From a virus (lineage: Duplodnaviria; Heunggongvirae; Uroviricota; Caudoviricetes): a DNA stretch of 55,396 bases. Where the stretch lies: the IMG/VR virus record IMGVR_UViG_2721755728_000002; one strand, 5' to 3'. Position numbers and translations under genes: made by a program. Within the stretch, counting starts at the first letter, position 1, and each line of letters starts with the position of its first letter. The notes under the pieces are model-generated. The model worked only from the letters and a program-made list of their open reading frames with translations. It was not told the origin of the DNA and searched no databases. Shown one piece after another: positions 21,792-22,478 of the stretch.

Positions 21792-22046
21792 TCGATGAAT
21801 AAACAATACGAACTGGTTGTAAAATGAATATTTCTAACTGAAAAAACGTTCCATGAGGTGAGAAAAGGTCACAGGCAATCAATAACAGGACGTGATGAAA
21901 GACCCTTGCATTTGTGCGCTTTCTCTTTAGATAGCAGCAGATACTGAAAATCTGAGTTGTCGGGGAGTCAGGGATACAGCTGTGCAAGAGTTGGTCATTG
22001 TGATTCCATTGAAATCCTGTATGCCATGAAGGGCAGGATTTTATGG

Positions 22047-22361
22047 CTACCTGAGCTTTGGTGATAGTAAGTTGAAAATTCGCATTTTTTGCTGACATGC
22101 GTAACGAGAATCCCATAAGCAGGGAGGACTTAATTCTTCATTAACCCATGCGTTGATATTATGTTTCAGCCGTTGAAGCATCAGCGGTGTTAATGTTGTG
22201 GTAATAATATCCAGCGTTTTATGTGAGATCTTACCGTAAGGGTCTGCAAGAATGCTGCTTGTTGCTTCGTTATTATCTGCCATCAGAAGAAGTAACTCTG
22301 ATTTAACGTTTTCTGTCATTAGTTGTAAAAATCTTCTGCGCAAACTTTCTTTACTGTTCAT
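22047..22361 (-). CDS. Hypothetical protein on the opposite strand inside the lysis cassette
   Basis: 104 aa ORF in an AT-rich insert between S and R; weak RBS. Confidence 0.35.
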   Translation of the reverse strand: MNSKESLRRRFLQLMTENVKSELLLLMADNNEATSSILADPYGKISHKTLDIITTTLTPLMLQRLKHNINAWVNEELSPPCLWDSRYACQQKMRIFNLLSPKLR

Positions 22362-22478
22362 TTATATGGCTTCATTTGTTGTAATCTGCTGCGTCTCAAG
22401 GGATATGTTTATGAGAGCGACCATGAGTGTTGGATTATATACCTAACATATCAAGGGATTAGAAATCGATAAATCCCC

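Follow-up and report, generated by a model that had tools for sequence, protein, structure and literature searches.

An intact small antisense gene beside a decayed forward gene in the holin-lysozyme gap of an Escherichia coli lambdoid prophage

In phage lambda, the moron bor is antisense to the late operon and lies beside the lysis genes; its product, Bor, is a lipoprotein. The porin genes of lambdoid phages, lc/nmpC, are also morons, with Lc being a porin. In Pseudomonas phage JBD26, the 83-aa protein Tab is encoded by a minus-strand moron that has its own promoter and is located between two late genes, in the terminase slot (PMC10884400). Tab is a constitutive defense, and the adjoining plus-strand gene of the late operon neutralizes it during the phage's own lytic cycle; this anti-Tab gene directly follows another late gene and is transcribed as part of the late operon (PMC10884400). 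YdfR, in turn, has been reported to interact with RNase E through the enzyme's catalytic half, and it possibly binds RNA as well (PMC13232886).

Here we analyze the 687 bp (21792-22478) that separate the holin (S) and lysozyme (R) genes in a 55,396-nt stretch of viral DNA (the window, to which all coordinates refer unless another locus is named). On balance, we favor the reading that this insert is mosaic cargo, in which a dead forward gene and an intact, self-contained moron occupy a phage-21-type slot that is habitually filled, and in which the moron, by analogy with described systems, would provide an exclusion or defense factor made in the lysogen. The moron probably does not serve to time lysis.

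The window is a lambdoid prophage of E. coli: bases 21500-23100 match E. coli O26:H11 11368 and many further STEC genomes at 100% identity, and over the surrounding ~18.7 kb the identity to the O26 prophage is 99.6%. The local order is a SASA/NanS-p-type esterase gene (ending at 21294), a terminator-like hairpin, the holin gene, the insert, the lysozyme gene and Rz/Rz1 (Table 1). PGAP names the product of 21585-21791 a 'class II holin family protein', and the translated lysozyme has a Gly/Ala-rich hydrophobic segment at its N-terminus. The window holin is without the upstream start of the dual-start motif (21573-21587), since ATA (IHQM...) stands where the 71-aa relatives have ATG (MYQM...), and is therefore left with a single start codon. 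The hairpin 5' of the holin (21504-21530, GGCCGTCAGTGGGTGACACTGGCGGC followed by a T-run) shares 20 of 25 aligned bases with a hairpin found 5' of orf6, and on its strand, in the phage 86 clade (L003, ~2893-2917); judging from this resemblance, it may be a recurring boundary element. The gap between lysozyme and Rz is also long (~435 bp, 23013-23447), and holds a strong bidirectional terminator-like hairpin (23103-23135, stem of 13-14 bp) and a 43-aa hydrophobic ORF (23305-23436) that PGAP calls hypothetical. The esterase gene (19445-21294) is present as two ORFs (19445-20158 and 20131-21294) that overlap and differ in frame; in the 99.6% identical prophage of O26:H11 11368 it is a single intact CDS of 1851 nt, and that prophage differs from the window by 6 gaps over 18.7 kb. 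The portal gene (30098-32358) is split in two frames as well (30098-31462 and 31459-32358) and PGAP marks the O26 copy as frameshifted, which suggests that the window prophage is probably defective.

Table 1. Features of the holin-lysozyme gap and of the two genes that border it (window coordinates)
Feature	Position	Strand	Basis or remark
Class II (phage-21-type) holin, 68 aa; left border of the slot	21585..21791	+	Pfam PF04971, E 1.9e-32
5' stub of a forward (late-operon) gene, MNKQYELVVK then stop	21795..21827	+	Starts a few bases past the holin stop
C-terminal-domain remnant (phrog_1085 type), two in-frame stops	21868..21999	+	tblastn with the Stx2_12E129 forward protein
Inverted repeat AAATCCTG / CAGGATTT, 8-nt perfect arms (22012-22019 / 22034-22041), 14-nt spacer	22012..22041		Inside the forward-gene remnant
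Frame-shifted last codons, YAMKGRI against ...YLKGRI* in intact relatives	22020..22040	+	Translation of plus-strand ORF 21957-22064 against forward-protein C-termini
Intact 104-aa gene, phrog_1853 family, predicted soluble five-helix protein	22047..22361	-	phrog_1853 match, homologs, dN/dS, AF2
~115-nt upstream block moving with the ORF; right homology boundary at GGATTTAT (22469-22476)	22362..22476	-	Alignment of window, L037, L035, L008, L009, L033 and L016
SD-like purine motif GAAG, 8 nt upstream of the ATG at 22361	22370..22373	-	GAGG/GAGA/GAAG there in nine aligned loci, both clades
Candidate -10 hexamer TATAAT	22434..22439	-	Best-conserved upstream block; TATAAT in 5/7 aligned loci, TACAAT in L009
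SAR-type phage lysozyme (endolysin), 177 aa; right border of the slot	22479..23012	+	Pfam PF00959, E 3.2e-24

An earlier note on this DNA had placed the end of the holin, the start of the lysozyme, the minus-strand ORF and the inverted repeat correctly, and had described the insert as AT-rich, which it is: its GC content is 0.392, compared with 0.521 for the window, 0.502 for the holin and 0.526 for the lysozyme, which places it among the 5% of 687-bp windows with the least GC. The 104-aa ORF itself has a GC content of 0.384, with flanks at 0.50-0.53. Low GC relative to neighboring genes (here 0.39 versus 0.52) is typical of morons.

The premise that holin and endolysin genes are normally adjacent is false for this cassette lineage, in which the gap was filled in every locus inspected. 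In a spread sample drawn from the 5072 genomes matching the holin or the lysozyme, we scored the loci with both genes in one place; among these the S-R gap is always occupied, usually by a YdfR/DUF1327-type forward gene, which is sometimes accompanied by a small antisense ORF. The occupants range from a 'YdfR family protein' alone (L014) to YdfR with an antisense 90-aa ORF (L012), a partial YdfR gene with a forward 161-aa gene (L013), a forward gene of 185 aa or 296 aa (L015, L026), and a 213-aa gene with a 75-aa DUF1327 gene and an antisense 95-aa ORF (L029). Because the gap is occupied wherever both genes matched, we regard it as a regular cargo slot of the lineage and not as an anomaly. The antisense ORFs of L012 (822-1094, minus strand, phrog_2411) and L029 (2402-2689, minus strand, phrog_10490) each lie just upstream of the lysozyme and are convergent with the YdfR/DUF1327-type gene; as these two families and the window ORF are mutually unrelated, at least three unrelated antisense families have entered the slot.

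The exact insert was found in 630 of 5426 complete E. coli genomes, so that roughly one in nine carries the 104-aa gene, including Shiga-toxin producers of O157:H7, O26, O103, O111, O121 and O145. Nearly all copies are at least 99% identical, a near-identity that reflects recent spread and not selection. The phage collection contained no nucleotide match to the insert. In O157 Sakai the copy is ECs_1097, located in the IS-disrupted prophage Sp4, where the whole pchA-Rz-R-ECs_1097-S block (L032, 33366-36376) is flipped with respect to the remainder of Sp4 and is placed between copies of IS629 and ISEc8. A 120-aa variant of the window ORF is carried by the prophages L020-L022, which also encode, directly 5' of the holin (L020, 3413-4554; also L021 and L022), a 263-aa Enterotoxin_a/Scabin-like ADP-ribosyltransferase and a 110-aa protein. 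In Stx phages the position directly upstream of the holin is that of stx; the pair in L020-L022 may be an LT-II-type toxin operon.

The 255 bp between the holin and the 104-aa ORF, whose nature the earlier note missed, are the wreck of a forward gene. In phage 86, Stx2_12E129 and most genomic relatives this gene is intact, encodes 189-268 aa and begins a few bases past the holin stop; its product has a conserved phrog_1085-type C-terminal domain, preceded by either a DUF1327/YdfR domain or a coiled coil. DNA homology of the window with phage 86 and Stx2_12E129 extends from the holin through to 21830, and the stub in Table 1 has 9 of 12 residues in common with the N-terminal end of orf5 from Stx2 phage 86, a protein with a DUF1327/YdfR domain. 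Further along, residues 143-186 of the Stx2_12E129 forward protein match the region with 36% identity over 44 aa (tblastn, E 4e-5 against this region), and the last codons persist out of frame. On these alignments, 21795-22040 is a decayed forward gene that would once have been co-transcribed with the holin. Structure prediction for the forward partner (P0063, 32 sequences) reached a pLDDT of 50, too low for a fold search, and the forward proteins had no match in PADLOC-DB v2 at E<=0.1.

The inverted repeat to which the earlier note had drawn attention lies inside this remnant at the place given, and is otherwise unremarkable. It is one of three such 8-nt repeats in 751 nt, its fold has a z-score of -1.3 on the strand of the ORF and -2.1 on the plus strand, and the homologous position of related loci has no such repeat; given the weak fold and the missing counterpart, we judge it to be incidental. 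A role as terminator was rejected in view of the weak fold, the absence of a U-tract after it on the ORF strand and the lack of conservation. Two other ORFs in the insert, one of 120 aa on the minus strand (21754-22116) and one of 64 aa on the plus strand (22252-22446), overlap the remnant and the 104-aa gene, have no family match and were treated as spurious.

The 104-aa ORF, in contrast to the forward gene, is intact. It matches the phrog_1853 profile of PHROGs v4 with an E-value of 3.5e-47 (161 bits), residues 1-102 corresponding to profile positions 57-158 of 159, and phage 86 orf6 covers the same profile positions. The family is thus already catalogued in public databases, where it has no assigned function. 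Homologs form ~49 clusters among 5.8 billion proteins, the named ones coming from E. coli or Shigella only, and a profile search of 1.84 billion representatives returned 21 proteins, all of them family members or fragments save one, a long repeat-rich protein (E 4e-5) that we take as a weak and spurious match. Full-length homologs of 101-109 aa align end to end at 43-79% identity and have motifs in common, among them EPYG, W-NEELS and WD--YA--QK; 12 columns are invariant in an alignment of 23 sequences. Selection on the protein is evident at the codon level and not at that of the nucleotides: pairwise dN/dS is 0.13-0.49 over nine loci with synonymous divergence up to saturation, and a comparison with L009 gives 32 third-position changes versus 12 and 12 at the other two positions.

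AlphaFold2 (23 sequences) predicts five helices with no membrane segment (pLDDT 89.5, pTM 0.80), in agreement with a GRAVY of -0.33 and the absence of a hydrophobic segment. The search by homology and structure that had been proposed for this product gave a family and a confident model, and no relatives beyond the family by either route: Pfam held no family at E<=0.01 (and so no PF07041, DUF1327, match), NCBIfam held none, a PDB sequence search returned nothing meaningful, and the predicted fold had no fold relatives. Neither the ORF nor phage 86 orf6 matched a PADLOC-DB v2 defense model at E<=0.1, no Rfam RNA family matched, and the papers of the searched library did not name ECs1097 or WP_000138558 and contained a single mention of DUF1327. 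The conserved residues are polar or hydrophobic and do not form a catalytic-looking set; with no recognizable catalytic motif among them, the product is most plausibly a binding protein and not an enzyme. Charge gives no pointer to a nucleic-acid-binding role, as pI is spread over 5.2-9.6 across the family and net charge is not conserved.

PGAP calls a shorter version of this gene, of 90 aa and starting at 22319 (WP_000138558.1, 'hypothetical protein', the same as ECs_1097 in Sakai Sp4). Met1 at 22361 is aligned in all clades, an SD-like motif is found at a fixed distance from it, and at residue 15, the Met chosen by PGAP, the distant clade has Ile. We therefore take 22361 as the start of the family; on this alignment, the start codon annotated by PGAP is probably wrong.

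The ORF is accompanied by a conserved stretch of upstream sequence (Table 1). In L037, homology to the window begins at GGATTTAT, ~30 nt upstream of the TATAAT, and the sequence farther upstream is unrelated. The ORF and its ~115 nt thus behave as a portable unit, and no other evidence here speaks as strongly for a dedicated promoter, which stays a candidate: there is no convincing -35 element, and a consensus promoter scan made no call. Downstream of the ORF stop (22047), on the way to the holin, we found no canonical terminator; the nearest minus-strand terminator-like sites lie at 21617-21603 (weak) and 21331-21302 (strong). As no canonical terminator follows the ORF, transcription from it may read through into the window holin and cross that gene in antisense. 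The suggestion in the earlier note that the insert might encode an unrecognized cargo function is borne out to this extent: it contains a conserved protein-coding gene under purifying selection, and a conserved upstream block of its own moves along with it.

The genomic context of the homologs bears directly on what this gene might do. In phage 86, Stx2_12E129, L006, L007, L009-L011, L016-L019, L023 and L024, the homolog lies antisense between S and R and is convergent with the forward gene, and in L006, L007, L016 and L033 the 3' ends of the two genes overlap. ORF clades at only 43-53% identity to the window ORF are also paired with phrog_1085-type forward genes. Among homologous S/R cassettes, the ORF is present in L003-L007, L009, L016, L020, L023 and L033 and absent from L014, L015 and L026. 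Several loci keep an intact ORF with a damaged or missing partner: the partner is frameshifted in L005, cut to 65 aa in L033, and absent in L020-22, where the ORF almost abuts the holin; in L008 it is down to 28 codons in a decayed, IS-rich remnant in which the lysozyme is broken. In L035 the intact ORF neighbors a gene of the PerC family, away from any lysis genes, and in L037/38 it is found in another cassette type (holin_8 / holin_3_7 / GH108 endolysin), divergent from those genes and upstream of a porin gene. Conversely, the forward family occurs without the ORF in L015, L026 and Stx2_95. Since the two families each occur alone, a functional pairing is conjectural, and the Tab/anti-Tab analogy is weakened. 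The intact pairs in Stx2 phage 86 and Stx2_12E129 come from sequences deposited as complete converting-phage genomes, and partner-less copies sit in defective-looking prophages, namely the window and O26 11368 (portal split or frameshifted) and Sakai Sp4 (IS-disrupted), a distribution in keeping with the Tab/anti-Tab analogy.

In the mosaic-cargo reading that we favor, the 104-aa gene and its own ~115-nt upstream block (22047-22476, minus strand) would form a self-contained moron. Transcription from its candidate promoter would run against the late operon, so that the protein could be made in the lysogen, where it would act by binding or regulation and would benefit the lysogen or the prophage and not lysis itself. 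Going by analogy alone, the protein may be an exclusion or defense factor expressed by the prophage, and the late-expressed forward gene of the relatives may, on the same footing, be its former counterpart, a partner that would have become dispensable and decayed in this defective-looking prophage. A more general proposal, drawn from the Tab/anti-Tab analogy and in our estimate rather unlikely, is that the S-R gap is a hotspot for two-part modules, each pairing a small antisense gene expressed in the lysogen (phrog_1853, phrog_2411 or phrog_10490) with a late-operon gene that abuts the holin: the small protein would block incoming phages and the forward protein would switch it off in the phage's own lytic cycle. 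The window would then have lost its counter-defense gene to decay, leaving the host with a domesticated defense gene.

Four other explanations of the ORF were weighed. The recurrent pairing and the overlapping 3' ends would fit a toxin-antitoxin-like arrangement in which the small protein is an antidote or regulator of the forward product, leaving the window ORF as an orphaned relic with no function of its own. We consider this distinctly unlikely, as the ORF has stayed intact with low dN/dS after independent losses of the partner (window, L005, L008, L020, L033, L035, L037) and the forward family is also found alone; moreover, a convergent layout is atypical for toxin-antitoxin operons, and the PADLOC searches gave no match.

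An accessory protein that works on the lysis machinery, for example a cytoplasmic modulator of the pinholin or the SAR endolysin made during phage development and not in the lysogen, would be consistent with a small helical protein without an enzymatic motif, and with the position of its gene, which in most contexts abuts the 5' end of a divergent lysis gene (the R lysozyme, or holin_8 in L037/38). This too is improbable. Known antiholins, unlike this product, have a transmembrane segment, and the marks of antiholins and lysis regulators (a membrane or holin-derived product and a late transcript) are absent from the 104-aa ORF; oriented against the late operon, its product cannot come from the late transcript. 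In addition, the ORF is kept whole in L008, with its truncated lysozyme, and in L035, which has none, and the two lysis cassettes that it accompanies are of unrelated types.

The earlier note had suggested that a convergent gene at this place could modulate lysis timing by antisense interference. Put fully, transcription from the ORF promoter into the holin would damp or time holin expression, with the protein being secondary, an explanation that we regard as very unlikely despite three features of the window that are compatible with it: the ORF is convergent with the holin, the interval between 22047 and the holin is free of canonical minus-strand terminators, and, with the upstream codon of the dual-start motif gone, other controls of timing could matter. 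The constraint falls on the protein, as the dN/dS values and a synonymous divergence of up to saturation indicate; in most relatives a forward gene of ~600-800 bp lies between the ORF and the holin; no RNA family was recognized; and what an antisense transcript would target differs between contexts. In L037/L038 the ORF is directed away from the lysis genes, and L035 and L008 are without a functional cassette. In one case the ORF has moved with its ~115-nt block into an unrelated cassette, and there it does not lie antisense to a holin; this speaks for an autonomous moron that codes for a protein, and against a control of lysis by antisense. With constraint on codons and an antisense geometry that is not kept across contexts, these comparisons make antisense control of the holin unlikely as a selected role, and the proposed lysis-timing function is not supported. 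Finally, a chance ORF in decaying AT-rich filler would suit the shorter PGAP call and the lack of a strong promoter or SD sequence, but is effectively refuted by full-length homologs down to 43% identity under purifying selection, by the confident AlphaFold2 fold and by the finding that only 46 of 5000 shuffled inserts (0.9%) contain an ATG-initiated ORF of at least 104 aa.

For the present, then, the 104-aa gene is an uncharacterized moron in a mosaic late region and, as phage cargo, nothing out of the ordinary. Its function, once shown, would fill a blank in EHEC prophage late regions near toxin, esterase and lysis genes. If it is true that the small antisense genes of the slot are defense or exclusion genes with late counterparts, the slot would be useful for mining phage-phage conflict systems.

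Of the described systems, YdfR/DUF1327 (PF07041; ydfR of the Qin prophage) is the usual occupant of the same S-R slot. The window keeps only a 10-codon stub of a DUF1327-type gene and no functional one, and the 104-aa ORF differs from that family in lying on the other strand and in having no DUF1327 match. Like the bor and lc morons, the ORF is an extra unit of the late region, of deviant base composition and directed against the late operon; as is usual for morons, cassettes that are otherwise homologous may have it or lack it, and the L037/38 copy even lies beside a porin moron. Unlike Bor and Lc, its product is predicted to be soluble and has no sequence or fold similarity to them, and the gene has no canonical terminator and a promoter that is only a candidate.

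The closest architectural analog that we found is Tab/anti-Tab, whose geometry is seen in relatives of the window ORF, with the promoter again a candidate; in the window the forward gene is a pseudogene. The two systems differ in host, in slot (terminase versus lysis genes) and in their proteins, between which the profile search of 1.84 billion proteins revealed no homology, and the ORF and the forward gene do not obligatorily co-occur. A link between the window ORF and Tab/anti-Tab, drawn by analogy, is speculative. The nearest counterparts by descent are the phrog_1853 members phage 86 orf6 (BAF34038.1) and Stx2_12E129 BCI98957.1, homologs of 104 aa with 53% identity to the window ORF that occupy the same antisense site just upstream of the R lysozyme, in the same S-R slot. 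In those inducible Stx2 phages the slot is filled by an intact forward gene (orf5, 268 or 213 aa), whereas the window retains its remnant next to the intact 104-aa gene.
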